64,000 bases of DNA, taken from Obrimoposthia wandeli. Taxonomy: Eukaryota. The notes under the pieces were generated by a model. The model did no database searches. It was given only the letters and a program-made list of their open reading frames with translations, and was not told the origin of the DNA. The stretch is taken from positions 372,001-436,000 of the forward strand of contig CDROCS010003621.1 of NCBI GenBank assembly GCA_977020255.1, read 5' to 3'. Positions 1-43,733 of the stretch are shown one piece after another. Every line of letters begins with the position of its first letter. Positions within the stretch are counted from its first letter, which is position 1. The position numbers were made by a program, and so were the translations under genes.

Positions 1-1348
1 TTGGGATACTCGGGTGAGATTTATCTACTCGTCGATGAATGGAGTCCTCTTCATCCTCCTCCTCCTCCTGAGTCGACGGTACATCATCACTGAAGAGCTT
101 CTCGTCGGAGTCGGGTATGAAAACAGTCTCTGATTGAAACAACGGGATTATCTTCAATTGACATTGGCGTTTGATGTCCACCTCGAAATTGTCAAAGAGA
201 TAGCTCCTCTTCCTCGTTGGTGTCTCTAACGGTAACATTGTTGCTTGTGCCGAAGTTGACGGATGAGCAGAGGCCTCTGCATTCCGCTGGTGATTACAGT
301 ATTCTCAATTTTCAATCGAATCCTGACTAGTCAGATAGATATAATAGGATCTATGTACGCCTTCTTTCGCTGCCATTGATTGTTCTCTCGGATTCGAGTT
401 GGCGAGAGGTTCGTCCAGCTCCATTAGCTCTTGACTTGCTACTCTGATTGGTTCTTCTTCTCCTTCGCTCACCACTGTAGAGTCTTGACTAAGCAAGTAA
501 TGGAATTGGTGCTGTACTGGAGAGAGATCTCCATATCGTCGTCTAGGTCAACTTTGTTGTAGAAAGTCATTTTCGATTTAAGAAAAATAATGAAAAGAAG
601 TCTCTTTCTATAGACAAACATTAGACTAACCCTCTTTTATCGTCCAATGAGAGTGTGCTATTCAAGTAATTTATTTGAAAATTCGTAGTATTTTCTAAAG
701 TTTTTGACTATCTGTGTGTGTGTATCCTTGGATAGAAAAATAATTTAAATTATTTTTTTCAAAAATTTGATTGTGTTGACTTATAAAACACTTATGCATT
801 ACTTTATATAATTCTTAAAGCCATATATGTGTGTACACATGTAGACAATTGGGTAATTTCAAAAGCTAAATGATAAGCCAAGAATCGTAGGGACCTGCTC
901 AAAATTGTTCTTGATGGAATTCAAGTATCCTATACGCTTAATCTTCTAATTTCAGTTCACCAACTTAACCACTGTACCATACAGTAATTATTCACCTGTA
1001 AGGGTATTCATTAAAACAGGTTTTTGAGAGAGACCGACACCGAATCACTTATAGATGCATTATTTAAAAGCTTGGAAAGGTACTATTATAGGTGAAGCGT
1101 GAAATTTTCGGTGACTGGACACCCTTATAGGTGGGACCCCTTATAGGTGAATAATTACTGTATTTAGCAGCTGAAAAATGTATGTATGTCTCAGGACATG
1201 TATAGATTTTTATACACGTATGTAGTTGAAGTAGTAGAATGAATGTAGACGGTTATATATAGGGAATTTATTTTCACGTACGAACGAGGGGTAATTAGAC
1301 TAGACACACATGGTAACCCCCTGGTTAGACCGGACACATCTACCTAAT
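1..1348. mobile_element. Right end of a second Maverick/Polinton copy (continues left of the window)
   Basis: 1324-1348 (GTTAGACCGGACACATCTACCTAAT) matches the right terminus of the intact element (ATTAGACCGGACACATCCACCTACT, 43709-43733). 1-700 is a degraded homolog of the 41953-42780 gene region, e.g. LSQDSTVVSEGEE and YIYLTSQDSIEN in ORF 305-496. Confidence 0.85.
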
Positions 1349-23399: not shown

Positions 23400-25300
23400 A
23401 ATCAAAATATTTAAGAAATTACTATGGATTTTCAAATAAGCTATCTGTATATGAAGAAACCTATTTTCATTATTTTTCATAAATCATGTCCTTCTACAAT
23501 AATATCTACTCATGCAAGGAGATGGAGGTGGGGCTGTAGGGAGATCTCTATCCAGTACAGAACCGAACGCAACCACCGTCGCAGTACATCGACTTACTTA
23601 GTCAAGACACGACGGTGGTGAACCAAGAAGTATAAGCATCAGCAAGAAGAGCAGAAGTATGAACAAGAGGAGGAGCAGCAAGTCAAGAGCCGATGAACCT
23701 TGGCGAACCTATCGCCACTTCGACTCAGAGACAAACAGTAGCAAGATGAGGGTATAGTAATCCAAATATATTGACCTGATTAGTCAGGAGTCGATTGAAG
23801 ACTGTACTCCTCGGAAAAATGCAGTAGCTCGTCCATCAACTTCAACAAAAGCAACAAGGATGACGACAAGGAAGATAAGCAACCTCTTTGATAACCTCGA
23901 GATGGGCATCAAACACCCATTTAAGATGATCCAGTTGTATCATCCGGAGACAGTCCTGACTCCTGACTCCAACGAGAACCTCTTCGAAGAACCGGCAGCG
24001 AATGATACGAGTTTCGTTCCAGTGACTCAGGAGGAGGAGGAGGAGGAGGAGGAGGAGGAGGAGGAGGAGGAGGAGGAGGAGGAGGAGAAAGAAGAAGACC
24101 TGACTTATTTCATATATGAATGAGATGGAGAGACTCCTGATCCCCCATGCAATACTGTAGTCCAAGAAATCAGCGACAGTATCATGATTGTTTTTGATGA
24201 GGATGAAGATCTCATTTCTTTACTCGACTAATGGGTCGGTCTCCCTCCAAGTCTCTCAACCAGCAACAACACTCCAGTGTAGAAACGACTCAATCATTGC
24301 TGAGTTGGACGATGAAGAGTGGCGTCTATTCACGGCAGAATGGGACAGTCTTACCACTGGTGATACTTCGACTCTTACTCCGACTCTTACTGCAGACGAA
24401 ACGGTGTCTGATGTATTCAGAAGGCCACAAACTCATTTGAGACGAGGCAGGAAAATAAAGGCGACAAATGATGTAAGATTATTTATTAAAAAAATATATT
24501 TTAAACATAATTTTCTTTAGAAACCTCAACTGAATATGGTCTTGTCGGTGACTTCGGTGGAGAGACTGCTGGAACCGAAGATTATCGCAAACCAATGCAG
24601 CCAGGTGTGTCAAGGACTCAGTTGCAATATCTAGAAAGTTATAATTAATTATTCATGTAAGAAGTCGATCGGGTAGAAGACGTGCTGGAAAAGACTGCTC
24701 CTATATTATCGGTGGACCAGAAACATGCAGTGATGCAAAAGTCCAGGAAGAACAAAATAACAACGAAGACAGTTTGGAGGAAGAAGGCAAAGTTTTTTAA
24801 ATGTATTAAGTTTTTTAATGTATTAATGTTCTTTTAATGCAAGAACCAGATCAGATGCAGCTACTGAATGAGTTGCTTAGAAAGGCTACTGTTATCGCAC
24901 CAAGATGCAAGAAGTGGACAGTGGTGCACAATAAGTAGAGGGCGAGGAAAGTGACCAGTTTCTCCGATCGGAATAACTCATCCTCCCAGCCAGCGTCGCA
25001 TACAGGAGACATTACTGGTGAACTGTACTCCGTCACCACCTGTTATTTAGCAGCCATCTAGACTAAGTCAAAACTTGGCTCGAGCTTGGGAAACTGCTGA
25101 AACATCTCCTCTACCCGTGGTATCAAATAGCCAGAATTTGAAGAGGGCTTAGCTCGATGCCAGGTTGTACGAATTCATGGCAGAGCTGAAAACTCCGCGC
25201 CCACAACCTTCCAAGTATCCTATTTTCAAACGACAACATGATGCAGTGGCACGACAGATGGGTAGTGAGAAGAAGGAGAGAAGGAAGAGAGCACCAAGAA
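23400..25300 (+). pseudogene. Degraded copy of the Maverick right-arm SIM-gene (opposite orientation to the intact element)
   Basis: YIDLLSQD, YIDLISQESIED, NLFDNLE, IIAELDDEEW, IKATND followed by gtaag, all homologous to 40565-42669. 24950-25260 is closely similar to the reverse complement of 51340-51660. Confidence 0.85.
24031..24087 (+). repeat. (GAG)19 microsatellite
   Basis: 19 perfect GAG units (poly-Glu) inside the degraded gene copy. Confidence 0.95.
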
Positions 25301-26046: not shown

Positions 26047-26421
26047 AGAAGGTGGATGTGTCCGGTCTAATCCACACCCCCCTCCCCCTACTGTCCTTTA
26101 AAACCGTGCATGTGTGTGGAGTAAAATTTCGTGTAGGTGTGTCTCCATTCCACCCAAAGGGGGAAGGAAGGGGGTACCCCCTACTGTCCTTTAAAACCGA
26201 ACATGTGTGTGGAGTGAAAATTCGTGCATGTGTGTGGAGTGAAAATTCGTGTATGTGTGTCTTCATCCCACCCAAAGGGGGAAGGAAGGGGGTACCCCCC
26301 TACTGTCCTTTAAAACCGAACATGTGTGTGGAGTGAAAATTCGTGCATGTGTGTGGAGTGAAAATTCGTGTATGTGTGTCTTCATCCCACCCAAAGGGGA
26401 AAGGAAGGGGGTACCCCCCCC
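26047..26421. repeat. Left TIR plus three tandem units (93, 119 and ~119 bp)
   Basis: Units start CCCCCTACTGTCCTTTAAAACC at 26084, 26177 and 26296 and contain the 25-bp sub-repeat CATGTGTGTGGAGTGAAAATTCGTG. Confidence 0.9.
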
Positions 26422-26687
26422 GCCCACCACATTTTTTTAAAATTTTACCACGAATCTCAAAAGTGGTTAGAGAAGACTACGAGAATCCATATTGACCCCG
26501 GCGGCTTTTCGCAGACGAGATTTCAAATATTACTACTATTTTTAAGAAAGATTTTAGATTAATAAATTACTACATGTTAAATATCTATGTCAGTTTTAGA
26601 ATTTAGAGGAGAAAAATCGGTCAGATCTATATAATTTAGAGGAGAAAAAAACAAAATACGAGACAAAATTATTTTTCAAAATATTTC

Positions 26688-27092
26688 TTAAACATAAAAC
26701 AACATATTGGCTTCACTCAAAGTCCAGAGAGGCTGCATTTTCCCGTCATCAGCAAAATATCCATTGAGACGTATTGAGATATTCCATAGTTCTTCATCTA
26801 GAATTGGAGCAATCAAATATCCTAGATCATCTTTAAAATTCAGACCGGGATCAGTTTCAAGCTAGAAACAATTTCCTTCATATACATAATCAGGATTGTA
26901 AAATCCCAAAATATTTTTCAATTGATCAATATCAGTTGTTGTTAAAATTTCGATGAGATATTTATTCTCCACTTTTGATATTTTCACAGGATTCATAACT
27001 CGTATAATTTGATGCCTCTTTAATATATTACATAGTTTTCCTTTAGAAATTCTTTCTGGATAATAAAAATTTGCTACACATCTCTTATCCAT
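26688..27092 (-). pseudogene. Maverick left-arm gene A, unknown function (one internal TAG at 26862-26864)
   Basis: The frame stays open after the TAG (LETDPGLNFKDDLGYLIAPILDEELWNISIRLNGYFADDGKMQPLWTLSEANMLFYV); a homolog of this part lies at 45579-45818. Confidence 0.7.
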
Positions 27093-27227
27093 TCTAAAAT
27101 AAGGAAATTGATTAAAAACAATGTTTATAAAAAAATACATATGAGATACAAATAAGATACAAATAAAACTGATTATTAAATGAAATAAACATAGTAAAAC
27201 CGATTACAATTTATTACACGCAAAAAG

Positions 27228-27710
27228 TTAAAACATAGAAATATGAGCACGTTCAATTTTCCACATAGGCAACTTTGTTCCCATTTCATCTTTCTTGTAA
27301 CCATAAAGTCGAATTGTTTGAGTCCATTGCTTCTTTTTCGAAAACGCATCAATATCAACATAACTTCCATAGTCATCTAGAAATGCTTCATCGGCTCCTC
27401 GGATATAAAATTCGTTCTTATTGAAAGTAAAATTTGGAACTGCCTTTTCAACTTTCTGTTTAAGATATTGAAAATCAGGTTTTTGAATATTTGATAGATA
27501 GTAGCTGAACTTTCTTCTTTCAATTGTCACAGGATTTACTAAAGCAATCAGTTGAGGCTTCTTCAAGAATCTGACTTTGTTTTTGAAATATTGTTTCACT
27601 TCTTCATACATATCCTTATCCGATTCTTCAAACATTTCTATATCTTCGTCATCGCTTAATACCCGTTGGCTATTGTCCATCGTTGATAATTGTTTTTGAT
27701 ATGAATGCAT
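27228..27710 (-). CDS. Maverick left-arm gene B, unknown function (paralog of gene A)
   Basis: 160-aa ORF with a TATA box upstream (27742-27748, minus); degraded homolog at ~46170-46480; shares a DDxG...W...IRLxGY...PxW motif with gene A. Confidence 0.7.
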   Translation of the reverse strand: MHSYQKQLSTMDNSQRVLSDDEDIEMFEESDKDMYEEVKQYFKNKVRFLKKPQLIALVNPVTIERRKFSYYLSNIQKPDFQYLKQKVEKAVPNFTFNKNEFYIRGADEAFLDDYGSYVDIDAFSKKKQWTQTIRLYGYKKDEMGTKLPMWKIERAHISMF

Positions 27711-27727
27711 TTACTGTGATTTGTCCT

Positions 27728-27907
27728 CCAATGGCGCATTCTTTTATACTAATTTCTAACAAAGACATGAATCTCATTGGTTAATATAACTAAAGCATTG
27801 AATTTGATTGGACTAAATCTATATTCAAAATCAAAATTGATTGGAAGAAATATATCATCCAATTATAATAGGTTTGCAAGATAATTACAAGAAACGTGCT
27901 ATAAAAA
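27728..27907. promoter_or_regulatory. Bidirectional CCAAT/TATA promoter region
   Basis: CCAAT/ATTGG at 27728, 27776, 27807, 27840 and 27859; outward-facing TATAAAA at 27742-27748 (minus) and 27900-27907 (plus). Confidence 0.55.
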
Positions 27908-27959
27908 AGCAGGTTCAGACATATATAAAGAAGATTTTACAGAATACAATTTCAGTCTA

Positions 27960-28459
27960 ATGAAACTCGTAGATATAAATTATAAAGGTAGAACAGAAGA
28001 TGATGTTTCGTACTTACCATTCAATGAATGGAAGCCGAGACAATATGTAGAAAAGTTTGACAATTTCACAGTTGTTATTTTTCCTACAGGTTAGTTTTTT
28101 ATTTTATTTTCATATTGAATTCTTTAGGAAATTGTCGTGTTATGGAATGCAAAATACCAATGCTTAGGTTCAATTTACCATTTGGAATTCAAATCACTGC
28201 AATACAATCAATCACGATTTCGGCTAATCTCGGGAAACAGATAAATCTTTTTAAAACTGCAGAGAAAATGAAAGAAGAATGCATGTTTGAACCAGAAATT
28301 TTCCCTGCTCTCAGTTATTTGAAGTTTAAACCGCTATGTGTAAATATATTTTCCAGTGGTAAAGTTATGATATTGGGATTGAAAAATTTTGATTATCCAA
28401 ACATTGTTGATTTGATTTTAGAAAATATATCTTATTACATCTTGTTATCTTTTCTATAA
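27960..28459 (+). CDS. TATA-binding-protein (TBP)-like protein, 153 aa, join(27960-28089,28128-28459)
   Basis: A 38-nt GT-AG intron joins the frames. Repeat 1: WKPRQY...VIFPTGNCRVM. Repeat 2: IQSITISANLGKQINL...FEPEIFPALSYLKFKPLCVNIFSSGKVMILGLK, versus TBP IQN.V.S.D....I.L...YEPELFPGLIYRM.KP.IVLLIF.SGK.V.TGAK. Confidence 0.85.
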
Positions 28460-28487
28460 ACAAACCCGTTTAAACTTATTGTTTTGA

Positions 28488-28760
28488 ATGAATAATACTA
28501 TAAATAGAGACAATGAAGTGGATCGTCTTGTCGACGAAATATTTTCTGGAAAAATTAGGGGTAAAGAAATTTTATCAGAATTAAAAAATAATGATATAAC
28601 AAGAGATAACATTGAAATATTGGTTAGATCACACGTTATTCGAGAATTTAGAAATCGTACACAAATAAATAAAATTATAGCCAAATATTCATTAATTAAT
28701 TTTAGTATTTCATCTACAATAGCTCTAACATTGTACATTTCAATAAGGAAACTTCTATGA
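28488..28760 (+). CDS. Small Maverick protein with hydrophobic C-terminus, unknown function
   Basis: 90-aa ORF tightly packed between the TBP-like and ATPase genes. Confidence 0.5.
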   Translation: MNNTINRDNEVDRLVDEIFSGKIRGKEILSELKNNDITRDNIEILVRSHVIREFRNRTQINKIIAKYSLINFSISSTIALTLYISIRKLL

Positions 28761-28797
28761 TAATATAAACAATATTAAAAATGAAAGAGTATATGCA

Positions 28798-29445
28798 ATG
28801 GAGCTAAATAATAATGCTGTATTTCAAATAGTTGGCCCTAGTGGAAGTGGAAAGACACATTTCGTCTGTAAATTGTTGCAAAATGAATCTCTTTTCAAAT
28901 CTAGTTTCAAAAATATTTATTGGCATCATGGTGGAGGAGGGGAAAGCGGGTTAACCAAAACAGAAGTTTGCAAGTTGAAGGGTATAAAATTTATTGAAGG
29001 ATTTGATGCAAATTGGTGTGAAAGATTGAAAAAAGAAGATGTAATAATAATTGATGATTTGTATGAGGAGGCTAACAAGGAATCGGACTTTAATAATTTA
29101 TTTACAAAGATTGTAAGACATCGTGAAATAACAGTTATATTTATCACTCAAAATCTGTTTCACCAAGGAGGTCACCATAGAACAAGAAACCTTAATGTAC
29201 ATTATTTAGTTTTATTTAAAAATCCTAGAGATCAAACAGTTGTTGATTTTGTGGCCAGACAGACATTTCCTCAAAATAAGAACTTTCTAGTTGATTCATT
29301 CCACGATGCTGCTAAACAATCACATGGGTATATATTTATTGACATTACACAAGCTTGCCCAGATGATTTACGTGTTTTAACAGACATATTTAATTCTAAG
29401 GGAGTAACTGTTTATAAACAAATAGAGAACAATTATAAAAAATAA
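28798..29445 (+). CDS. Packaging ATPase (A32/FtsK-like)
   Basis: Walker A GPSGSGKT, Walker B IIIDD, and RH and TQN motifs typical of Polinton ATPases. Confidence 0.92.
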   Translation: MELNNNAVFQIVGPSGSGKTHFVCKLLQNESLFKSSFKNIYWHHGGGGESGLTKTEVCKLKGIKFIEGFDANWCERLKKEDVIIIDDLYEEANKESDFNNLFTKIVRHREITVIFITQNLFHQGGHHRTRNLNVHYLVLFKNPRDQTVVDFVARQTFPQNKNFLVDSFHDAAKQSHGYIFIDITQACPDDLRVLTDIFNSKGVTVYKQIENNYKK

Positions 29446-29624
29446 ATTCGCAATGCCTTTTACAAAGTTGATAGTAAAACGTAAAGTAAAATCTAAGAAA
29501 TCAAAAAAAAGAATCATTAAGAAAAAAGAAGTGAAAAAATTAATCAAATCTGTAGTTAAAAATAAAAAAAAACTTAAATGGCTTCGAATATAAACAATAT
29601 TTAAATTGAACCTTTTTTATTAAA

Positions 29625-29953
29625 ATGAAGAAAATACAAAGAAGCATACCCTATTTTAAAGCTTTAGTCAAAGCCTCTTCTAATAAGAGAATGATTATTC
29701 TTAAAGCATTTCCATCTTTTGTTGTAGATGATTTATTGGAAGTTTTGTATAATATAGTTTTGGGTCGAGTAAAAGTTGGAAATCGGAAAAATATATTATA
29801 GAAATATAGAAAAACTCTTCTAGATATTGCTAATGTAAAAAGTAAAAAAGGAAACGAAATATTATTCTTAAACAGAATGGTGGTTTCATAGGGGCTGTTA
29901 TTCCAGTTGTTGCTTCAATTATCAGTAGTATTATAGCTGCGACACGTTCATAA
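29625..29953 (+). pseudogene. Conserved small Polinton virion-core-type protein (stop at 29799 plus frameshift)
   Basis: LLEVLYNIVLGRV...ILKQNGGFIGAVIPVVASII: a QxGG protease-site-like motif followed by a hydrophobic helix. Confidence 0.6.
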
Positions 29954-30039
29954 ACAATTATTTCTAAAATCAGCTAAAGATATGGGTGCTAGCCCTTCTT
30001 TACCTAAATTTAAATTTTCTTTCTATTCAAATTGTTGTA

Positions 30040-31068
30040 ATGTAGAAGATATGGTTCAATCCAAAAGATCCAATTGGCTACACAGGAGTTTCAAAATTAG
30101 CAAAAAGAACAAAACAAAATTACAAGAAAACGCAGAAATGGCTGAGCGACCAGTTAGCCTACAGTCTGAAGAAGCCGATGAGAAGATGGTTTCCAACTAG
30201 AGCTTACAAAACCAGCGGTCCTAATAATTTATGGCAAATGGATTTGATGGAGATGATCCCATATTCTTCCATTAATAAGAGATATCGATATATTTTAACA
30301 TGTATTGGTGTATTTAGCAGGTTTGCTCGTGCAATTCCAGTTAAAGCAAAGTCTTCAATAGCTATGCTTGAAGCCATTAAAGAAATATTAAAAGAGGACA
30401 TTCCACAAAATGTGCAAACTGATTTAGGAAAAGAATTTTATAATAAGCAAGTTCAATCATTATTTAAACAAAATAATATAAATCATTACTCTGTGTTTTC
30501 ACAATACAAAGCAGCAGTAGTAGAAAGATTTAATCGTACTCTAAGAGATCGAATAAAAAAGTATTTCACAAAAGAAGGAAATAAAAAATGGATCCAAGTT
30601 TTACCTAAAATAATACATGCATATAATCACTCTGAACATAGAGGTCTCAAGGGAATGAGACCTGTTGATGTTACTAATAAAAACTCTATGGACATTTGGA
30701 TGAACAGGAATAAAAAAGATAAAATTAAAAAAGCTAAATATAAGAAAAACGAATATGTTCGAATTTCGAAAATTAGCTCTACTCCATTTATTAAAAACTT
30801 TGATCAGAATTGGAGCGATGAAATATTTTGTATAAGTAAAATTGATCAAACGAGTAATCCAATAATGTATACTATTAAAGATGCTGACAATAATATCGTT
30901 CACAGTAAATTTTACGAGCAAGAACTACAAGTAATATCAAATAAACCTAGCGTTTTCCGTATTCAAAAAATATTAAAATCTAAGGGTACAGGTAAACATA
31001 AACAATACTTTGTTAAATGGCATGGTTATTCAGACCCAACTTGGATATCAGCATCTAATATAATATGA
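30040..31068 (+). CDS. Retroviral-like (rve) integrase with C-terminal chromodomain; TAG at codon 2 (30043-30045), open from 30046
   Basis: KIWFNPKDPIGYTG...WLSDQLAYSL N-terminus, WQMDL, QTDLGKEF, VERFNRTL (DDE triad), YFVKWHGY chromodomain. Confidence 0.93.
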
Positions 31069-32126
31069 AGTCTATGTATATGGTTTTACCTAGTAACGGA
31101 TGTCCGAAGACTCAACCAGATAATTACGCTAGTAGCTTTATTATCGATTGGGAAAATCCTATAAATATCCAAGGAGAATGGGAAGCGGCTTTAACCGAAT
31201 TTTCTTTTTATTATTCTCCAATTACTATCAGAAAAAACTCACATATTTCGTTTACAAAAGAAGTTGATCATGAAAAAACAACTAAAGTTGTGATCGGGTT
31301 TGATAGTAAAGGAAAATTCTTTTACAATTGTATAGATAAAGAAGTGAAAGTAATATATGAAAAAAACAAAGTCAGATTTAAAAATCGATCAAAACATTTT
31401 CAACTTATTCAAATTATATTCGAATCTGGAAAAGAAGCTCTTCAATTCGGTTTTGATAGTGGACATGTAGTAGGTATGAAGAGATCTGATATTGTCTCAT
31501 CTAAAATGTTTAAAAATGTTCCTAGTAGAGTGGTAAGAGTGTTGTTAGTTGAAACGAGACCAAAGACTGTAGTGGAACTGAAAATGTTTTCAAAAGATTA
31601 TAAAATAGATAGTGAAGTGAATTTCTGTAAATTAATACAGAAGGAATGTAGTGAATATTTGGATAAATGTGAAACATTAAAAAATGGTAAAATAACGTTT
31701 ACAGTAATGAGCAATATAAAACGAGTTTCATTTGATGATAAACTCGCTAAAAACCTTGGTTTAAACAGAAATACCTTTGAAACCCATACAATAAAAACCA
31801 TAAAAGCTAAAAATAAGGCAAAACTTTTAAATGCTGTTAATCATTTATATATTTATACTAATTTAATAGAACCAACGCTTGTAGGAGGACAGCGAGTTCC
31901 ACTTTTGAGAACAATATGGATATCTAAAAATGAAACTAGAGATGGGGACGCTGTCGGTATGTGTATAGATCAACCAATGTATCTTCCAGTTTCTCTCTTT
32001 TCTATAAACAATATTGAAGTAAATATTAGAGATGATTCCGGACAACTAATAGATTTCACGTACGGGGCCAAGACAAGTTTAACAATACATTTAAGAAAAC
32101 AAAATGGCGAATCCAGCAATAATTGA
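31065..32126 (+). CDS. Minor capsid protein (penton-like)
   Basis: LPSNG.P...DN.ASSF...GEWEAALTEF N-terminus; LYIYTNLIEP..VGG..VPLLR and YLPV...INNIEVNIRDDSG C-terminus. Confidence 0.88.
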   Translation: MKSMYMVLPSNGCPKTQPDNYASSFIIDWENPINIQGEWEAALTEFSFYYSPITIRKNSHISFTKEVDHEKTTKVVIGFDSKGKFFYNCIDKEVKVIYEKNKVRFKNRSKHFQLIQIIFESGKEALQFGFDSGHVVGMKRSDIVSSKMFKNVPSRVVRVLLVETRPKTVVELKMFSKDYKIDSEVNFCKLIQKECSEYLDKCETLKNGKITFTVMSNIKRVSFDDKLAKNLGLNRNTFETHTIKTIKAKNKAKLLNAVNHLYIYTNLIEPTLVGGQRVPLLRTIWISKNETRDGDAVGMCIDQPMYLPVSLFSINNIEVNIRDDSGQLIDFTYGAKTSLTIHLRKQNGESSNN

Positions 32127-32481
32127 AGCTTATAGTCAAAGCCAACAAGGAGGAGAATTACCATATTTTATTGGTAAACAATACGGATCTGGCTGGCTTA
32201 GAACATTAGGTAGATTTGCCTTTCCTCTTTTAAAGAGACTCGGGCGATTTATATCAAAATTAGGAAAGGATTACCTTTCATCTAAGGACAATAAACTAAT
32301 ACCAACTTTTAAGAAGCATGCACTTACAGAACTTGATAATATTTTACCTGACGTTGCTTATTTTATTAGAAAAGGTAAATCAAATAAAAGCCAAGAAGGT
32401 AGTGGATTTAAACGTGAAAAGAAGCAAAAAATTAATATAAACAAACGTAAGAAAGTTGATGGAACAATATTTGCAAAATGA
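32104..32481 (+). CDS. Basic virion core / amphipathic-helix precursor protein
   Basis: QQGG, QYGSG and QEGSG putative protease sites; WLRTLGRFAFPLLKRLG amphipathic helix; basic tail; lies between the penton and MCP genes. Confidence 0.7.
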   Translation: MANPAIIEAYSQSQQGGELPYFIGKQYGSGWLRTLGRFAFPLLKRLGRFISKLGKDYLSSKDNKLIPTFKKHALTELDNILPDVAYFIRKGKSNKSQEGSGFKREKKQKININKRKKVDGTIFAK

Positions 32482-33707
32482 GTTGCGCCAAAACCGAATT
32501 GTGTATTTCTGATAAACCACTGCTACAAGTAGTTGTAGATAATGCTTTTTTTGAAGAAATATTTCTAGTTAACTCAGTTTCAGGAACTACTTTAACCGAT
32601 TTAGAATTTAATATTAATGGTTCCAATAGTGAGTATTTAGATTTGATAAATACTTTGCTTTATGTTCAAATAAAAGTATTAACTCGAGATGATACTAAAT
32701 TAGATGAAAATGCAGATGTAACACCTGTAAAATATCTCTTTAATTCTTTATTTAGTGATGCCATTGTTACTCTTAATAATGTCAAAATTGAAGGTGGAAA
32801 TTCTTCCTATGCTCATAAAGCTTTGATTGAAAGTCTTTTGAATTATAGTACTGATACTCAAAATACTAATTTGGCAACCATTGGTTATGATAAAACTGTT
32901 GCAACTCGCAAAGAATGGATTGCAGGTTCTAAAGCTTACGAAATGTGTGGGTCTTTGAGTTTGAATTTCTTTGAACAACCGAAATATTTAATTCCCGGTG
33001 TTAATGTACATATTCGTTTGAAACGTAATAAATGGAATTTTTCTTTGATAAGCACGGACGTTCTAAAACCTAGACTTGATATTTTGGATGCAAAATTGTA
33101 TGTTCGAAGAGTTAAAACCGAGCAGTCAGTTTTAATGGCACATAATATAGGAATGGAAAAAAACAATGCTTGTTATCCTATTAGAGAAACTAAACTTATA
33201 TCTTATTCTTTAGGTACGGGTACACAAGCTTTTAATAAGGATCAAATTTTTGGTGATGTAAGATTACCGAAATTCATTTTAATTTCTTTTCAAAAAACTG
33301 CAAAGTTTCTAGGAAATTATACGACAGATGCAACTCAATTTGACAATCTTAGTGTAGGTTCAGTGACACTTTCAAGAAATACTGATTATCGCGAAACATA
33401 TAAAACAGATTTCGAAGGTGACGCTTATGATTTGGCTTATACCCAATCTATTATTCGGAATTTGGGTCAACTAGATAAAAATATAAACAATGGTATTTCT
33501 TTCACTGACTTTAAAAGCAGCTGCCCGTTCTTCACATTTGTTTTGGCACCAAACTTTGATATAAACCAATGTCAACTACCAAAGGATGGAAATTTACGAC
33601 TAGAAATTAAGTTCAATGCAGCTTTAACACATCCTACTACGGTGTTTATTTACGGAGTATTTGATTCGGAAATACAAATCAATAAAAACAGAACTGTCAT
33701 ATTATAG
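32478..33707 (+). CDS. Major capsid protein (double jelly-roll)
   Basis: 409 aa; KTELC...P..Q, LEFNI.G....YLDL.NTLLYV, PKYLIPGV...IRLKRN, LYVRRV, G.LRLEIKF..AL motifs of the Polinton MCP. Confidence 0.92.
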   Translation: MSCAKTELCISDKPLLQVVVDNAFFEEIFLVNSVSGTTLTDLEFNINGSNSEYLDLINTLLYVQIKVLTRDDTKLDENADVTPVKYLFNSLFSDAIVTLNNVKIEGGNSSYAHKALIESLLNYSTDTQNTNLATIGYDKTVATRKEWIAGSKAYEMCGSLSLNFFEQPKYLIPGVNVHIRLKRNKWNFSLISTDVLKPRLDILDAKLYVRRVKTEQSVLMAHNIGMEKNNACYPIRETKLISYSLGTGTQAFNKDQIFGDVRLPKFILISFQKTAKFLGNYTTDATQFDNLSVGSVTLSRNTDYRETYKTDFEGDAYDLAYTQSIIRNLGQLDKNINNGISFTDFKSSCPFFTFVLAPNFDINQCQLPKDGNLRLEIKFNAALTHPTTVFIYGVFDSEIQINKNRTVIL

Positions 33708-33708
33708 A

Positions 33709-34089
33709 ATGGAGTAAGACATATTTTAAATTTATATTTATTAATTTTTATTTAGTTCAAAACAAGTAAAAGAATCAGCAGAGAAGGTCCTAGGTGATAA
33801 ATTCAATGGAGTTTATCCTATTGATATGATTCCATTTTTTCAATCTGGAGGTCATATTATCAATACTCATACTTCGAATTTACCGGGAGAACATTGGATA
33901 GCTATTTATGTTAGAGAGTGGACAATACATGTATTTGATCCACTTGCAATGTATTATCCACACAAACTTGTTTCGACTATTCTAAAAGGACGAAGAAGAG
34001 TATTTTACAACAAGATACAATATCAGGATCCTGCGACGAGAAACTGTGGACATTTATGTATTTTATGGTTATCGTTGCAAAACAATTAG
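33709..34089 (+). CDS. Adenain-like cysteine protease, 112 aa, join(33709-33713,33756-34089)
   Basis: A 5-nt first exon (ATGGA) and a 42-nt GTAAG...TTTAG intron give MDSKQV...FNGVYPIDMIP; catalytic H (GEHW), D (FDPL), Q and C (QDPATRNCG). Confidence 0.88.
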
Positions 34090-34347
34090 TGTGTTATAAA
34101 AATAAAAATTTTAAATGTTTTATTTTGAATTATTTTTAAATCTCTAAAAATATAAGGGTAAAATAATAAAAGACATAAGACAATTTTTTTTAATACATTT
34201 ATTAATCACAACATCACAATGAGATATGTCAAAGATAAGGTCAAACCTAAAAAAGTATTGAAATAACAAATAAGTTAGAGTCTAGGTGCCATAGATATCT
34301 AAAATTTTAAAAAACTAAACTAAAAAAATCAAAAAATGAAAAACCGT

Positions 34348-37300
34348 TTAAATTCTGAAGTGTCCATAAGCCAGGCTAGCGTTCTTTTCTACCCAAAAGC
34401 GCTTGTCGTCATTACTACTCAAAGCGATCTTTGTTGATTTATGGGAATACAGTTGATGGGCTCTTGAAATAAATCTAGTTTGCTCAACGCTTTCAATACA
34501 CCCAGTATCATAAACTTTCCGGTAGGCCTCATGTGTAAGATTGTTTCTTCCCACACTCTTTGCTCTCATTGAACATGTATTATTAGATGCATGTAAACTG
34601 TAGCATTTAGGGCGTAGGAAAATACAATCATCATACGAAACCTGTCCCTCGCTTTCATCCTTAAATTTCCCGATAATGTCCTTTAAACTCATAGAGTGTA
34701 GAGGATGGTTAGCGGGATATTTATGGGTATCTAGTAAGTTGTCCCTAAACATTGCTGGTAATAATTGATTATTTAAACTAACATTCCTACATTCTAAAAA
34801 GAAAGAGTCAGTGTCCCCAGCTGCGATTTTGATCTCACAATTAAATTTTTGTCGGTATTTCTCCAATTCTATGTATTGAAGCTCATACATTCTGAGTTTA
34901 GAAATGTCTAAAACCGTTTGACCTATATAACTCGGTCGATCGAGACAAATACTCTGTTTTCCTAATAACACTGCTACCAAGTCATCTGCAATTGTAAAAC
35001 TACGCTTGAAGTTGTACTTGCTAGTATATGTTATTAGTTTACGCTCATCATTGCAAAACCGTAGACAAATACGTTTCCGCAAGTCCTCTACAGTTTTTCC
35101 AAAGAGACTATTACTTTTTAACTTGTAAAAATCTCGATCGAATTTGCTAGTGGCCAAATTACGTTTTCTTGAATTCTTCTCAATATAGTCTTTAAACACA
35201 AAGTTTTGACTGAAGCTTATAGCCCGATGAATTCGAGTAACTTTCGCTCCCAACTTTAAGTAGAATTGAAGAAGCCGCCAATGCACAACATAATTCAACT
35301 TGTCTTCATGGGTTAACAATAATTTCTTAACCTTTGAATTAGGTGGGCATTGATGAACAGGCGCTACTGGAAGATCATCTAATTTATCATGCACATTGGG
35401 AGGGATTTTTATGTCCACCTCAACCAAATAGCCGACGTCGGATGAAACTGTATCAACAGTAGCCAAATCTGTCATCAACTTATTCAACTGATCCACATCA
35501 TAAACCCACTTAAAGTTGGCATGAGGTAGAGGTTGAGTAAGCGCCCACCCATACAAATTATTAATATCGATGTACAGAATCTCCGTGGATTGATTTTTGA
35601 CAACATGATGTTTGTTGACAAAAGTCATTCCACCGCGTATACCATAATCATACATTTGATACATCGCGGGATCTTGCAGTAACTCGATATTAATTTTAAG
35701 AGTTTTTATTGCTGTTGCCCATGAAAGACCAGGTAAACTAAAGAAATGCATGGGATCTAGCCCATCTTCTGCTAAAGACTTTACACGAAAGGACTCAAAA
35801 ACATCAGCTAAAAGATAAATGTCTAACTTCATATAATAAAGCATATATTCGAGAAGATTTCGACAATTATTCACCCAAAATGTACGGGCCTCATTATAGT
35901 CTTGAAGACTTACACCCTCAAATTCAGTTATGGGTGGGATTTCAGTTGTATTTTCTAAATCTGCGAAAGTTTTTGCAAATTTAAACGGAAAAATCCCCTT
36001 ATCGTTAACCGAAGCTGGAAACACTGACTGTGTAATTGACCATGCATTTAAAGATGCTGTTAAATTTTTTAAAGACCCGCTCAAAAACTGCACAGAATCT
36101 ATGAATCTTAAACTGCAGAATTCAGTATATGCAGTTAAAGATAAATATTTCTCTGAAGTTTGAGGTATACATGAAATTTCCCAAGAGCTTAATGTACCCA
36201 ACGCGTATTTAAGTATATGATGCAAATCATATCCTTTGAGGTTATGAAACACGATGGGAATGCGTGGTTTTTTAGGGAGACGACGGCCAAGGATACAAAG
36301 GTTGCACGCCGCTCCCAAGTATCGCCCCGTAACATGATCGTGATCTCTGACTAACTTAGACTGGGTTCCACACAAATAACATAATCTACAAGAATTAAAA
36401 TTAACCCAGTCTATGCCTGTCATGATCATTGCTTGATGAGCATTGAGATCATACCACGGTTTGACAATTGTTGTTCCTAATTCCTCTAATTTTAACATAA
36501 AATCTAAAATACATTTTGGACCGGAAAATTTATGATACTGGGTAATATTGGGGCCTAAGAATAGTAGTCCTGCCGAAGCCGGTAGGTGAATACTCTCATA
36601 CTGGTCGTGTAATGCTAAAATTGACTCAAAATCTGCATACACCCTGAATTCCACGGGTATGCATTTTGCCCAATCCCTGAATTTTAAATCCTTATCCTTA
36701 GGCATGGTGTATAACGTATTGTAATTAGGATTCAGTGAACATAATGTCAGATGTTTGATGTAAGAGAGCTCAGATCGGAACCCATGCAAACATCTATGAC
36801 ACCACTTACACCTTATCCTAACCGGTAAGGCTCCATTATCTAAATTTAGAAGACGATCTAAATTGGGAATTGCAGCATAATGGAATTTTTTATTATGTTC
36901 GAGCAAAATTAAGTTGACCTGAGTCCCCTCATTTTTACTCCTATAAATTACATCTACAAAAGGATTTTTAACATTTTCTTCATCTGTTACATTAACTGGG
37001 ATATCAGTATTGTATTTGAATACATTAATACTCAATTTATTAAGGTGTTAAAATCTTGATATCGCAGTTAATTTAACTGGAAAGTCTATTCCATGATACT
37101 GCAATTCATTTAAAAAAGGGGTATATTTACTGACACGCTCTCTATGCTCAGTAATTACATCCCCTTTGAGGATGGCCAACACGCTATACAGAAAGCAAAG
37201 GTTATCACTGTTTTGTACGTTAACAATGGAACGTGAAAGTTGAAGAGATCTAGGTGAAGGAATGTATGAACTCCCCGAAAGATATATCATGTCAGTGAAC

Positions 37301-38950
37301 TTTGTTAGAACAAAGCTAACATCGTGAATTCTAACTAGAGTCCATCCACTACTTAACTCGCTATAATTAGCAATTTTTTCATCCAGGTTTCTTCCAATTT
37401 CAGTTACAAAATTATCATAAAAAACAGTTGCTTTATGTGAAATTACCCAAGTTTTAGTTTCCTCATTGACATTTTTAAACTGCACTGTTGCGCAAAATTG
37501 AACCTTAGCCTGTCCTAATTTAGTCACTTCTGATTTTAAAAGATTTTCAATATTTGAATCTACACCTACGTTTAATAAAATTTCATTTCCTAATGGCACC
37601 TTAACTATAACATATTTATTATTTAGGTGATACTCTATAGTAGCACCGTTTTCTCTACGTTTTTTGGGTGGGACCTTATTAAGAAATTGGCCTCGCGTCT
37701 TTCTTCCGTTTGTCGCTGACAAACCTCCCCCTAATTGAACAGGAAGACAACTATTTATATTAATAGTTGAGACAATCGCAGCTGAGGTTGAAGGTGCTGC
37801 TATTGGTGATGCTGCCGATGTTGAGGCAATTGCAGCTGATGTGGAAGGTGCTGCTATTGTTGATGCTGCCGATGTTGAGGCAATCGTAGCTAATGTTGAA
37901 GGGGCTACTGTAGCAGGTGCTACCGATGTTGAGGCAATTGCAGCTCGTGTTGTAGGTGAGGCAACTAATGTTGGTTTCGCAGATGATGCGCTTGTAGACG
38001 CACTGGTCACTAGATCATCAGTAGCTGATGTCATTGAAGCGACTGTTGTGGACGTCGATGATGCATGTGCTGAAATTAATATATTAAAAAAAAAATATTA
38101 AAAAAAAAAAACCTCTAAGGCGTGCTAACATCGATGTAGGCACTCGAGATGGGGGAGACATAGCTGTCCTATCAGATGACGGCTGTATCATGGTACTTCC
38201 TGAATAAAAAAAATATATATATATATATAATAAAAAATAAAATATATAATTTTAAAAAATAATAATAAAAAATACCTAATGAAGGCAATCCAAGTTGAGC
38301 TGGAATGTAGTCCTCTTCATTGATGGAATCCATCCAGCTGTCGTCCGTTGACTCGACGAAATCGGATTCCTCGATGGTTTCCAACCAATAGTTATCGCTC
38401 CACTGAGGCTGCTCTATCTCGAAATCTGACTGGGTGATATTTTCCATCCAGTCATTGTTTGAGAATTGGGTTGCTGGTGCCAACTCCTCAAAATCTTCTT
38501 CGGAGATCTCGTTCATCCACTCATTGTTAGACATTTGAGTGGATGAGGCAGCAGCAGAATCAGGAGCCGGGAGAGAAGGACCAATGGCAGGACCATAAAC
38601 TGGTAGACTGACTGCCACTGGAATTGGAGCAGGAGCTGGAGCGGCCTGCGAATCGCGCACCAATTGCACGATATCCCTCTTCTTGTTGTTGGCCGTGAAA
38701 CACGATAGGTGAGCTCGATGTTCACCGAAGAAGTCTCGAAACTCCTTCTCCTCCATTGTTCTGCAGAATGGGCAGACGAAGAAGTGAAGCCCGCGAGACT
38801 TTGTCCGATAGTAGGCGGACATTGTCTCCATGCAGGACTCTCCTCCATGCGGAGCCGAAGCACCACAATATGCTGGAAACAGGATACAAGTAATCTGAAA
38901 TAATAAATATTAATAAGGAAATAATAAATATAAATTCTTACCATAGGCAT
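34348..38950 (-). CDS. Protein-primed DNA polymerase B with long spliced N-terminal extension; join(38950-38942,38894-38276,38199-38113,38069-34348); one in-frame TAA at 37048-37050
   Basis: YADFES, RDHDH.TG, FHNLKGYDLH, YIDINNLYG, KLKSNSLFGK and GDTDS motifs. Three GT-AG introns (47, 76 and 43 nt) join all frames into 4437 nt. F*HLNKLSINVF corresponds to the usual FE..N.ISINVF. Confidence 0.9.
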
Positions 38951-39181
38951 TATTTCAAATTGTCGGGGATTTAAATGAAGAAGGTGTTTGCTTATATACT
39001 AAAATTTATGCACACATGCTCTTTTCCTATTGGATTAAAAAATTGAATTTATTCCTCCACTGAGAAGGATTGTTTATCTGTTATTGGTTAAAAAAAATAT
39101 TTTTTATTCCTCCAATCAAAAGGCTTATTTGTAAATAATTGTAAAATTTTAATAATGAATTTCTCTAATTAGAAGAATTGT

Positions 39182-39670
39182 TTATCTACATGTCAAGTAA
39201 TAATAAGAAAGACTTAAACATTTTTTATATGCGCAATGGTCACCATGATTACGATATGGACAGCAAATATTTCGTGGAATTTTTAATAGATGATCACGCG
39301 AAATATTTAAAGTATTCAACCTCAATTTAGGAAAATATTTTTTTAAAGTCTTATATTTTTTGCCATCCATTTCATCTAAAACATAAAAAATTCCATTTTC
39401 AATATCAAAATTAGATGTTATTGTATCGAAAATACATATTTCACAAAAAGCCTTATGCCCATCTTTCCATTTTAATAAATGAAAGTAATTAGTTAGATAT
39501 AAATTAGTAAATTTTTTCTTATAATCTAAATTTTTAAACTGGATATCTATTTGAAATATGAAATGCAAAGGATGAAAAACGTCGCATACATCCATAATAC
39601 ATAATTCTTTTATAATATAATCACCATTTTTGTTAATGAAAGCCTCAAAATCTATGATATATTCCTGCAT
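39182..39670 (-). CDS. DEDD/DnaQ-fold (MAEL-like) Polinton accessory protein
   Basis: IDFEAF...YIIKEL N-terminal motif, H.L.W.DG centre, C-terminal CPYRNHGDHCA Cys/His cluster. Confidence 0.55.
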   Translation of the reverse strand: MQEYIIDFEAFINKNGDYIIKELCIMDVCDVFHPLHFIFQIDIQFKNLDYKKKFTNLYLTNYFHLLKWKDGHKAFCEICIFDTITSNFDIENGIFYVLDEMDGKKYKTLKKYFPKLRLNTLNISRDHLLKIPRNICCPYRNHGDHCAYKKCLSLSYYYLTCR

Positions 39671-39987
39671 AATTATCTAAATTTGTATCAAATCCCGTTG
39701 TTTATAACGAAAAAAATTATTAAAATAACAAAGTACTTTCATGATAAGATTGGTAAAAATTGTCAATTATCCTAAGAATATTAAAATAAATTATATTAAA
39801 AGTTTTTTTATATTCTTCCATTAAATCTGGAGATAATTTTATGTATAATTTATTTCAAATTTTATTATCCATTTTACAAAAACATTATATATAAATTTGT
39901 TTATTTTTAGTATGCTTATGTAAAATATTTAGACAATTATGTAAAATATTTAGACAATTATATAACCTAATCAATAAAGACGAAAAA

Positions 39988-40314
39988 TTAATCAAAAAAT
40001 TTACCTAATTTACCCTCTTCCGGTTTAATCTGGAGGATCCTTTTTCTTGCTGCTCGCCGAACATCCTCCATCTCTTCTCTTTTTTTTTCATCCACCTTCC
40101 TTTTTTCCAATTCGATCTTCTTGTTCCACTCCACGACCCGACGTCGTTCTGCTAGCCGCCTGTCCTGAATCTCCACCCGACGATTCCACTCGGTCGCGAC
40201 AGCAGTATACAAATTCTGGTTGAGGATCCTCTTTCGTAAGTCTCCTTTCTTCTCATTTATTCTTATGTTTGCCTCGATCTTCGTCACCAAACTTTGCAAT
40301 TTAATGAATTCCAT
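39988..40314 (-). CDS. Charged coiled-coil protein, unknown function
   Basis: 108-aa ORF with TATA box upstream; degraded homolog at 50640-50920 (ILN.NLY..VA). Confidence 0.6.
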   Translation of the reverse strand: MEFIKLQSLVTKIEANIRINEKKGDLRKRILNQNLYTAVATEWNRRVEIQDRRLAERRRVVEWNKKIELEKRKVDEKKREEMEDVRRAARKRILQIKPEEGKLGKFFD

Positions 40315-40564
40315 TTTTTAATTATGAAGATGTTAATAAATTTGAACCTATATATATAAATTTAAGATATTTTTTAATACAATTAAATGAAAGTTTAATA
40401 AATCTATAACTAATCATTGCATTTATTTTTAAACCTAAAAATTTTTCAATGATTCCTTATTTATCCAATCACAGGTGAATAAATTATTATTTTTTTTTCA
40501 TGTTGATCTTTTAATAAACTTAAAGATGAGATTTAAATAAATAATAACAATAAAACATATGAAA

Positions 40565-42669
40565 CTAATGTTTATAAATTATATTTTTAAACATCTTTAC
40601 GAAGTCATCATTGGGATCATCCGGGTCGTAATCCCTCCGACAAAGTTTTATAGGAGAAAGCGGTACTGGTTCCTTCTTCTTTGGCCGGCTCAGTTTCTTT
40701 TTCGGCTTCACCGGTTGCTTTGTAACAATTGTCCTTCCCTCGGGTTTTGGCAATAGTTGCCGCAACGTTTTGGGAGGAGGTGCTGCCGATGTTGATTTCC
40801 CCGACATTGAAGCAGTAGCCTTCCTCTTTCGCGGAGCTTTCTTCTGTTTCTCCTCCTTCTCACGCTGAAGCTGGCGTGAGACGGCATCCTGTTGCCCACG
40901 CGAATCTGGAAGCATTGCCGGTGTATCCAGTTCCGCCCGGAATTCGTCCAAACCAGCTTCATCCCAGGCTCTCTTTAAGTTCTGGCTGGTTGTTGGACGA
41001 GAAGAAGCAGTCTCATGCAGACGTGGTTGACTCGAGGGCGGACTTATCTCGATCGGCGAGACTGGGATCCTCTCGTATAAAATTGGACCGTCGTCCACAG
41101 GAGATGGGAGAATCTCCTGCTGGCCAATCACCGCCTCAGAATAATGGCCAATTGAGGTGCGAATTTTTCTCGAGCGCTTCGTCTTTTTCACCTCTGCCCG
41201 CTTTGTCCTTTTCTTAGGGAAAGGAGTAACTTCTCCCCAAGTCTCCTCAATTATCCGGACAGGTTCCTGCAGAAAAACATTAATAAAATTTCAAATAAAT
41301 TTTATTTAATTAAAAAAATATTTAAAATACCAAAAAATTACCTCAATACTTGTATACGGAAGTTTTTCCTGCCGCTCAATCGTTACTTCGCTCGATTTGA
41401 GCAGACAGGATTTCGCCTTTCTAAGACGCCTCGTCTTCCGTACAGCAGCCTGCCTCGTTCGCTTCTGCGGGAAAGGAGAAATTTTGGCCCATGTCTCCTC
41501 AGTTAATTGTATTGGTTCCTGCAACAAAAAACATTAATAAAATTTAAACATATAAATAATTTACCTCGATGACGGGCAGATTAGCCTGTTTCACCAACTT
41601 GGCCTTCTTCCGATGGACCGTATTGGTTTTGACCCGATGGCATCGAGGTTTCTTAATCGCCGCTTGCTTCCTATCGACGGGTAGTCTCCGAGTTGCCTCC
41701 TCCCAAATTTCCTCCACCAATTCGGCTTCCTATTTGAATAATTAAATAAATTTACTAATTTATAATAATATACCTCAATTTTATCCGGAGTCGGTTGGTA
41801 TCTCTGCTCACTCCTGGGATCATCCTGGCTACATTGACTCGCCAAGTACTGCGGTTCAATCAGCCTCTCAATCGTGGTCACTGACGGTGCCAAATCCAGT
41901 TGCAGTTTCTGAAAATAAAATTAAAAAACATTTTAAATAAATGATGTCTAACCTCATTCGTCGCCTTTATTCTCCTAACAGGACGTATCGGAGATTGTGG
42001 CCTTCTGAATGGATCAGGCAGTGCATTGTCGGGTATCGGAGTCGGATTTGTAGAGGGAGTGATACCATCCCATTCGTCGGTGAACAGATGCCACTCATCT
42101 TCATCCAATTCTGCAACCATGGACTCGTTGGCTCCTGGGGCTCCGATACTTGGCTGTATCCATTCCTCCTCCCCATCCGACGGAACGTCATCAGTAAACA
42201 GCTCCTCGTCTGAGTATGGTGCCAGTATTATCTCCGGTTGAGACAGCGGGATCAATTTCCATGGGCATTTGATTGCCGCCTCAAAATTGTCGAAGAGATT
42301 GGATCTCCTTGCTGCTACTGCTGAAGTTGCCGGACGACTGGCTTCTGTGTTCAGCCTGGGAGTACAGTCTTCCCAATTCTCTATCGAATCCTGACTAGTC
42401 AGATCGATATATTGGGATCTCTGTACCCCACATCGCACGCTCATTGGTTCTTCTCTTGGAGTTGAGCTGGCCAATGGTGCTTCTTCTTGTAACAGCTCCG
42501 CTCTTGCTGCTGCTTCTCCTTCGTCTCCTTCGCTCACCACCGACGAGTCTTGACTAAGTAAGTCAATGTACTGCGCCTGAGGTGGCGTTCGCTGCTGTAC
42601 TGGAGATAGATCCCCATACAGCTGAACCTCCGTCTCTTCGTCTAGGTCAACGTTGTTGTAGAATGGCAT
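40565..42669 (-). CDS. 631-aa acidic/basic disordered protein with SIM-like motifs; join(42669-41953,41908-41774,41729-41565,41518-41342,41266-40565)
   Basis: Four phase-0 GT-AG introns (44, 44, 46 and 75 nt); every exon length is a multiple of 3; no internal stops; QYIDLLSQDS and QYIDLTSQDS motifs; TATA box at ~42716-42724 (minus). Confidence 0.85.
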
Positions 42670-43080
42670 TCTTGATTTTGATTTTGATTTATGAAAAATA
42701 ATGAAAAGAGGTTTCCTTATATACAATAAACAATAGACTAGCCCTCTTTTGTCCTCCAATGAGAGCGGGTTATTCAAATAATTTATTTGAAAATCAGTAG
42801 GATTTTCTCAATTTTTTAACTATGTTTGAATGCTGGAATGTCATTGGATAAAACATATTTTATTCGAAAATATAACTATTTTATTCGAAAATATAACTAT
42901 TTTCTTAAGATTTTGTTGATTAAGTTTAACGTCCAATGAAAACGTATTATTCAAAAAATTTATGGTATTTTCTTAAATGTTGTTGATGTTTGAATACATG
43001 TATATCTTTGGATTTAAAATAGTAATATTTTCTTGACTGTACATGTTTGGATGGTATAAAAAAATTCATGAACTCATTTA

Positions 43081-43211
43081 AGGTCAAGTTAAGGTCATGA
43101 CCTTATGAGGTCATTACAGGCCATCATGAGGTCAAGGTCATTTAAGGTCATTATGAGGTCAAGGGTACAAAGTTGTCTAGGTCATCATGAGGTCAATATC
43201 ATTTAAGGTCA
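43081..43211. promoter_or_regulatory. Array of ten AGGTCA nuclear-receptor-type half-sites
   Basis: AGGTCA at 43081, 43092, 43108, 43129, 43135, 43145, 43156, 43179, 43190 and 43206; palindrome AGGTCATGACCT at 43092-43103. Confidence 0.75.
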
Positions 43212-43376
43212 TGATGACTAATTTTGATGACTCACCAAATAAAAATGAAAATTATTTCGAATTTATGTAGTTGATTATTTAAAATTTTTTGCGATATGTG
43301 TCTTTCTTATAAATTCTTATAAATTTTTTTTACGACCTTGTATATATGTATGGATATAAATTCTTATAAGGAAAAT

Positions 43377-43456
43377 TTTTTCGCGCCCGCAGGGCGTGAA
43401 AATATTTTCTCGCGTATAATTTTTCGCGCCCACCGTTCGCGAATTTTTTTTCTCGC
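43377..43456. promoter_or_regulatory. Cluster of E2F-type sites
   Basis: TTTCGCGC at 43379 and 43422, plus GGCGTGAAAA, TTTCTCGCG and TTCGCGAA variants in an otherwise CpG-poor background. Confidence 0.6.
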
Positions 43457-43639
43457 AAGCCTGTATGTATTACTCGTTGATCCACCGCGGGCCCGGAGGG
43501 CACGCTTTGGCCAATTTGACGGCCTCTCAGGACCTTAATCAAAATTTAGGGAGCATTATGAGATTTTTAAATTTAAAGGGTGTTATGGAGTTAATTATTT
43601 TTTTGAGTGTTTGGGAGGGGGGGGTAGAAATATTTTCTA

Positions 43640-43733
43640 CACACCTACACGAAATTTCACTCCACACACATGCACGGTTTTAAAGGACAAGGGGGAGGGG
43701 GTGTGTGGATTAGACCGGACACATCCACCTACT
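43640..43733. repeat. Right TIR of the Maverick
   Basis: Reverse complement of 26047-~26141 with a few mismatches and indels. Confidence 0.95.

Follow-up and report, generated by a model that had tools for sequence, protein, structure and literature searches.

A selected orphan gene with duplicated exons and two conserved SIM-like motifs near the terminal repeat of a Maverick/Polinton element of Obrimoposthia wandeli

Little is known of how Maverick/Polinton elements switch on their genes and cope with silencing by the host, and most of their accessory genes have no assigned role. Adenovirus E1A is spliced, disordered and the first protein expressed, and its EVIDLT sequence binds Ubc9 (PMC5930299; PMC5030357). 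The Oncoid genes of adintoviruses and Polintons are defined by LxCxE/CK2, CR1 and paired CxxC motifs (Starrett et al., 2021, PMC8502044); neither “SUMO” nor “splic” occurs in the main text of that paper. Proteins with several SUMO-interacting motifs (SIMs) include PIAS1 (VIDLT), RNF4 and Daxx, along with the viral proteins ICP0, K-bZIP, LANA and BGLF4 (PMC4907222; PMC3991395; PMC8616421; PMC12751080). A high-affinity SIM string has been described as one of V/I/L/F/Y, then V or I, then DLT (PMC3991395), while the classical core is hXhh, and many matches to consensus or degenerate SIMs are false (PMC8616421). As for gene structure, no introns were seen in the genes of intact vertebrate Mavericks (PMC8097293), and introner insertions have been described in dinoflagellate polinton-like elements (PMC12166617). 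Among the listed titles and abstract openings of the open-licence literature, none describes a Maverick transactivator that is spliced or carries a SIM.

We analysed a window of 64,000 nucleotides from Obrimoposthia wandeli (contig CDROCS010003621.1, positions 372,001 to 436,000 of the forward strand), to which all coordinates refer (Table 1). It contains a Maverick/Polinton that is complete at 17.7 kb, with CCCATT at either side as a perfect 6-bp target duplication. By Pfam, its open reading frames (ORFs) match an rve integrase (E 2.8e-11), the packaging ATPase Pox_A32 (E 3.1e-6) and a chromo domain, and weakly an adenoviral-type protease (E 0.035), with no match at E 0.01 for protein-primed PolB or jelly-roll capsid proteins. 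From polymerase-like motifs and gene order we take the polymerase (pPolB) to lie at 34348-37047, and the capsid ORFs were assigned by gene order. Terminal inverted repeats, a 6-bp duplication, core genes and flanking accessory regions are shared with the vertebrate elements described in PMC8097293, whereas in the element here three genes hold short candidate introns, about nine in all.

Table 1. Features of the element, the gene and its upstream DNA, and older copies within the window
Feature	Position	Strand	Remarks
Full-length Maverick/Polinton	26047..43733	.	inverted repeats at the termini; target site duplicated over 6 bp
Two E2F-type TTTCGCGC sites	43375..43429	.	variable between copies; 0.02 expected
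AGGTCA array	43081..43211	.	11 half-sites including AGGTCATGACCT palindrome; candidate nuclear-receptor enhancer
Core promoter candidate	42670..42770	-	TATATAAG at -54
Exon 1 (predicted)	41953..42669	-	239 codons; net charge -30
Motif 1, QYIDLLSQDS	42544..42573	-	residues 33-42
Motif 2, QYIDLTSQDS	42385..42414	-	residues 86-95
Intron 1 (predicted)	41909..41952	-	44 nt, phase 0
Exon 2 (predicted)	41774..41908	-	45 codons
Intron 2 (predicted)	41730..41773	-	44 nt, phase 0
Exon 3 (predicted)	41565..41729	-	55 codons; older module type
Intron 3 (predicted)	41519..41564	-	46 nt, phase 0
Exon 4 (predicted)	41342..41518	-	59 codons; duplicate of exon-5 module; missing from many older lineages
Intron 4 (predicted)	41267..41341	-	75 nt, phase 0
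Exon 5 (predicted)	40565..41266	-	233 codons; net charge +19; third module
Older broken copy	59..620	-	covers the 5′ portion of exon 1; changed in each IDL core
Older broken copy	23446..25300	+	both motifs present

Several other features of the element and its surroundings were recorded. A TBP-like gene at 27960-28459 on the plus strand (PF00352, E 6e-12) is apparently interrupted at 28090-28127 by an intron of 38 nt. A further four GT-AG candidates on the minus strand, likewise short and AT-rich (38941-38895, 38275-38200, 38112-38070 and 34344-34299), extend across 34299-38941, in and around the polymerase region, and suggest that pPolB is spliced and extended at length on its N-terminal side. 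An ORF at 38172-38909 (minus strand) combines a CxxC..H..H..C zinc-like pattern with four W-x-x-x-I-x-[EQ]-x-D-[FY] repeats. Outside the element, fragments of other Maverick copies, about 80-90% identical to its capsid-block or exon-5-like regions, occupy 44700-48500 and 50500-51700, and a reverse-transcriptase ORF of 692 residues (PF00078) lies at 60419-62497 on the plus strand.

With its start 1064 nt inward of the right terminal repeat, the gene considered here reads inward and lies upstream of pPolB on the same strand. Our model has five predicted exons on the minus strand, running from 42669 down to 40565 and giving 631 codons and a stop. The four introns are all GT-AG and contain 9-16% GC, compared with 48-53% in the exons. 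The preliminary description had proposed five exons joined by phase-0 introns; this predicted structure is borne out in the sequence, where every peptide that it quoted was found. Exon 1 contains two SIM-like motifs, four SQ sites, one S/T-P-x-R site, and the acidic-aromatic blocks NLFDNFE and AELDEDEWHLFTDEW.

We assembled two sets of copies for comparison. For the young set, 40 DNA matches were narrowed to the 30 best loci, of which the window is one, leaving 29 aligned copies; for the older set, three of 45 loci were excluded (one fragment and two that overlapped) and five near-duplicates were then removed from the remaining 42, leaving 37 copies with a mean pairwise identity of about 69%. 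Variants found in at least four of 30 young copies include 52 synonymous and 41 non-synonymous changes and no stops (pN/pS 0.23), whereas variants private to one young copy have a pN/pS of 0.67 and include 28 stops; three of the 29 young copies are free of stops and frameshifts. This difference between shared and private variants indicates that the reading frames were selected while the element spread and decayed after insertion. The gene is under purifying selection. In the young copies the introns diverge less than the exons, which might be held against coding, an argument that we reject because the mutation rate of G and C here is two to three times that of A and T. When exon 1 was used as a protein query, 150 candidates in the genome were scored, all 92-100% identical, which sets a lower bound on the number of copies. 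Among the 37 older copies, 13 show a match to the terminal repeat no more than about 1 kb upstream of the gene, and eight have the downstream neighbour gene beside it, so the terminal slot of the gene is old.

The splice sites are also largely retained. In the 29 young copies, 226 of 232 splice-dinucleotide positions are intact. Among the 37 older copies, intron 1 keeps its GT in 31 and its AG in 24 (the same dinucleotides within exons are kept at 51% and 55%), while intron 2 keeps GT in 19 and AG in 22, near background in noisy alignments; when older loci were scanned directly, many had AT-rich introns where introns 1-3 lie, the copies being about 70% identical. The description had every intron following a GAG codon. 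All four do so in the window, but intron 2 is preceded by CAG or CAA in 21 of the 37 older copies, and GAG as a special signal is rejected. We also considered a fifth intron near the 3′ end, where the last 36 nt are AT-rich and begin with GT, and rejected it because six older loci (L032, L042, L047, L082, L096 and L104) retain a peptide like that of the window and end in a stop at much the same position. A separate rearrangement is seen in one older copy (L032/L033/L037, G000:C298), which carries an 837-nt tandem duplication that reaches from the end of exon 1 as far as exon 3.

The related modules at the start of exons 3, 4 and 5 had been read as duplicated exons, and module identities confirm this. 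Over 54 residues, exon 4 and the start of exon 5 share 48% identity; exon 3 is 32% identical to exon 5 and 25% identical to exon 4. The duplication can be followed further, to between one and four modules per lineage. The distance from exon 3 to exon 5 is 220-237 nt in 10 of 33 measurable older copies, compared with 479 in the window, which fits absence of exon 4 in those copies; many of the remaining measurable copies are cut or rearranged. There is one module in L040 and in L095, three in L092 and four in L105, each following an AT-rich intron or an acceptor-like stretch. A tree of 32 module segments from the window and 14 hand-picked loci separates exon-3-type from exon-4/5-type modules (100/100) and joins exons 4 and 5 of the window (100/97) apart from the extra L092 and L105 modules (97/85). 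With long branches and an unsettled bootstrap, the tree suggests repeated duplication or conversion of modules. This is a Maverick gene that would have evolved through repeated whole-exon duplication, in a group of elements whose intact vertebrate members are reported as intronless (PMC8097293).

The two motifs of exon 1 are set apart from their surroundings in several ways. They agree at nine of ten residues, seven of these through different, synonymous codons, and only one of 16 flanking residues agrees. An internal 10-mer repeat with at least nine matches arises in one of 2000 shuffles of exon 1, and two [VILFY][VI]DL strings in eight of 20000; the element's other ORFs (3844 residues) contain one [VILFY][VI]DL string and no [VILFY][VI]DLT. 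For conservation, motif 1 ranks first of 230 ten-residue windows of exon 1 and the motif 2 core first of 236 four-residue windows. YIDL of motif 1 is exact in 17 of the 37 older copies (27 fully aligned), and that of motif 2 in 21, with YVDL in three more. The two YIDL cores rank first and fifth of 236 windows across the 37 older copies, and second and 15th once GC-to-AT decay is corrected for. These ranks are driven by the 21 copies found with an N-terminal query, and they are non-independent between related copies; in the 16 older copies found without that query, the cores drop to ranks 38 and 17, and in the eight of these that carry the 5′ half, 9 and 14, with full motif 2 at 65 of 230. The exon-1 blocks AELD, NLFDN and RRIKATNE are about as well kept as the motifs, and a lineage-level count of unchanged codons gives 18 of 20 for the motifs against 161 of 219 for the remainder of exon 1 (Fisher p 0.08). 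The expectation that the motifs exceed their flanks in conservation holds to the extent that the cores are among the best-kept windows, but not in the lineage-level count or against the other blocks. Together, the ranks and the codon-diverse 9/10 identity support selection on both motifs, and the pattern of selection marks them as functional sites.

Other motif claims fared less well. VDLDEE, listed beside the two motifs, is unremarkable, with VDLD ranking 62 of 236 four-residue windows. The IDL and SQ motifs had been described as retained in two diverged copies within the window. Both are present in the broken copy at 23580-23800, whereas in that at 305-496 SQDS survives and both IDL cores are altered (HYLLSQDS and YYIYLTSQDS).

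Assignment of the motifs to the SIM class is plausible. In the window YIDLT of motif 2 fits the high-affinity SIM string, and motif 2 is the only one to do so, but 14 of the 37 older copies have I in place of its T, which 16 keep; IDLL of motif 1, followed by SQDSS, fits hXhh with flanking acidic or phosphorylatable Ser residues, hXhh/hhXh-type cores being common (69 in the 3844 residues of the element's other ORFs). The host encodes SUMO, with an exon 77-79% identical to three database proteins, two of them named as flatworm proteins, pointing to a likely flatworm host. As in the multi-SIM proteins, a hydrophobic core is followed by acidic or phosphorylatable residues in more than one copy, and YIDLT resembles the VIDLT of PIAS1 (PMC4907222). 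The differences are that the motifs here are predicted from sequence and lie 53 residues apart, in a gene without a RING or other ligase domain: neither a RING/CxxC of a SUMO-targeted ubiquitin ligase (RNF4/ICP0 type) nor a corresponding Pfam domain was matched. SUMO or Ubc9 would be the likeliest partner of the YIDL motifs, with a chance that we put slightly above even.

If the SUMO link is wrong, the motifs may bind another partner through YxxL, which we take to be a motif class of LIR/Atg8 or adaptor type. The best-kept part is Y-I-D-L, and the fifth position varies, between L and F in motif 1 (L in the window) and between T (16 copies) and I (14 copies) in motif 2 among the 37 older copies. 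However, D is retained at position 3, the core is followed by S, T, D or E as in SIMs, and the many K/R stretches of the protein point to the nucleus; we regard a YxxL partner as distinctly improbable.

The SQ dipeptides had been read as ATM/ATR sites. SQ is enriched (8 compared with 2.9 expected, p 0.005) and is retained at residues 39, 92 and 143 in 17, 22 and 18 of the 37 older copies, but S/TQ taken together is not (p 0.13), and the same residues would also fit what we take to be a CK2-type context. For both reasons ATM/ATR is not singled out. These sites raise the possibility of a replication or DNA-damage cofactor, in which SQ and SIM-like motifs would either tie the element's linear, protein-primed DNA to repair factors of the host or keep these away from it. 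An S/T-P-x-R/K site that recurs near residue 226, and the position of the gene upstream of pPolB on the same strand, are in keeping with such a role, but a PIP-box pattern is absent from the exons and the S/TQ count argues against it, and we consider it quite unlikely.

Charge shifts along the product from an acidic N-half, in exon 1, to a basic C-half, in exon 5 (Table 1). Exon 5 contains predicted helices at 93-142, K/R-rich stretches and a conserved C-terminal PNDDF..F...IY.K end. Single-sequence folding gives a pLDDT of 45 for exon 1 and 61 for exon 5, with helices only in exon 5; the product is likely disordered, low single-sequence pLDDT being a weak indicator. The basic modules are repeated and variable in number, and exon 5 carries a net +19, as might be expected of a particle protein that condenses the genome or forms the core and has a chaperone-like acidic half. 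Yet the gene lies outside the intron-free capsid block, on the opposite strand and with its own candidate promoter, and the two capsid-position genes already have a small basic ORF between them, which makes a core protein very improbable.

Protein searches, which used single exons as queries, found no known relative. Pfam gave only sub-threshold matches, viral contigs and PDB sequences yielded no homologue, and the ESM Atlas returned one match of 0.76 for exon 1 and none for exon 5. Comparison of exon 1 with longer proteins gave none among 4353 candidates, which is weak evidence. Two matches among 1.84 billion representatives are long bacterial-type repeat proteins, which we rejected because their scores sum weak repeats. 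By these searches the gene appears to be an orphan. LxCxE, CR1, CxxC, PxDLS, the PIP box and a consensus SUMOylation site have no match within any exon.

E1A lies at a terminal position in its genome, and the gene here shares that placement. Both are also motif-bearing, spliced and largely disordered (the last two here by prediction), and the EVIDLT of E1A resembles YIDLT (PMC5930299; PMC5030357). Against this, Pfam, PDB and profile searches found no sequence homology and no sign of the conserved regions CR1-CR4, and LxCxE, CR1, PxDLS and CxxC are absent; the product has 631 residues compared with 289, with two copies of the motif and a long basic C-half from duplicated exons. With the Oncoid genes of PMC8502044 it shares the place of an accessory gene upstream of PolB that is known by short linear motifs only, but their LxCxE/CK2, CR1 and paired CxxC are absent from all exons here. 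By analogy the gene may work like E1A, but it is neither E1A nor a member of the Oncoid group.

An 11-nt box, CATTGGAGGAC, occurs upstream of a gene near each end of the element, at 27723 and at 42751 (minus strand), and nowhere else in it. Between the core promoter candidate and the terminal repeat lie an AGGTCA array and two E2F-type sites. We take these by consensus to be nuclear-receptor sites and, for TTTCGCGC, E2F sites. The 11 AGGTCA half-sites compare with 0.32 expected and were equalled in none of 300 shuffles; at least six are kept in 27 of the 29 young copies, and the palindrome in 21. In older lineages the array was found by blastn in none of 37 copies, which have at most three half-sites. 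A perfect E2F site is present in only eight of 29 young copies and two of the 37 older ones. Upstream of the gene CCAAT shows no enrichment. The earlier proposal of an immediate-early regulator gains circumstantial support from the terminal position and this upstream DNA.

The reading that we favour, as evenly balanced between right and wrong, is of a selected terminal accessory gene whose product is a probably disordered nuclear early regulator that would dock host SUMO through the two YIDL motifs. The anatomy, one half acidic and motif-bearing and the other basic, would fit a spliced nuclear regulator transcribed by the host. A TATA promoter, with sites for host factors by the terminal repeat, would let host RNA polymerase II transcribe the gene, and the basic modules would take the protein to the nucleus, probably to DNA or chromatin. 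There, the YIDL cores, with neighbouring phosphorylatable S/T and acidic residues, could bind SUMO or Ubc9, and the acidic-aromatic blocks of exon 1 could form an activation surface for the element's other genes. Gain or loss of phase-0 modules, which leaves the frame intact, would tune the amount of basic sequence. A bolder version, and an unlikely one in its entirety, is an adenovirus-like programme in which a spliced, terminal E1A analogue is switched on by nuclear receptors and E2F at the terminal-repeat enhancer, engages SUMO via its two motifs and hands the cascade to the TBP-like factor of the element, while its exon modules expand and contract in conflict with the host.

The same motifs could instead serve a decoy against silencing, the other role proposed at the outset, in which the protein binds SUMOylated chromatin repressors and shields copies of the element, and is not mainly an activator. 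Two selected SIM-like motifs and the growth of the family to at least 150 near-identical copies are compatible with this, and viral SIM proteins have been described as countering SUMO-based restriction (PMC12751080). However, no feature here sets a decoy apart from an activator, Pfam and PDB searches found no ligase, protease or known DNA-binding domain in the gene, and the conserved acidic-aromatic blocks would be left unexplained; we think it rather unlikely. The decoy, the replication or repair cofactor and the YxxL partner overlap as explanations.

Taken as an early regulator that docks SUMO, the gene is a concrete candidate for how a Maverick deals with its host, and it offers two motifs that can be altered by point mutation, an acidic half that can be separated from the rest, and upstream DNA of defined extent. 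If the SUMO link is true, an integrating relative of adenoviruses would have come to an E1A-like solution in which no homology can be detected; if it is false, a well-supported orphan gene of predicted spliced structure remains, of modest interest. A final observation concerns ubiquitin-like sequences elsewhere in the genome, where five contigs (G000:C2592, C2050, C4682, C1456 and C1351) carry tandem ubiquitin-like units with a 270-nt period in separate short frames, which differ from the 228-nt arrays of polyubiquitin.
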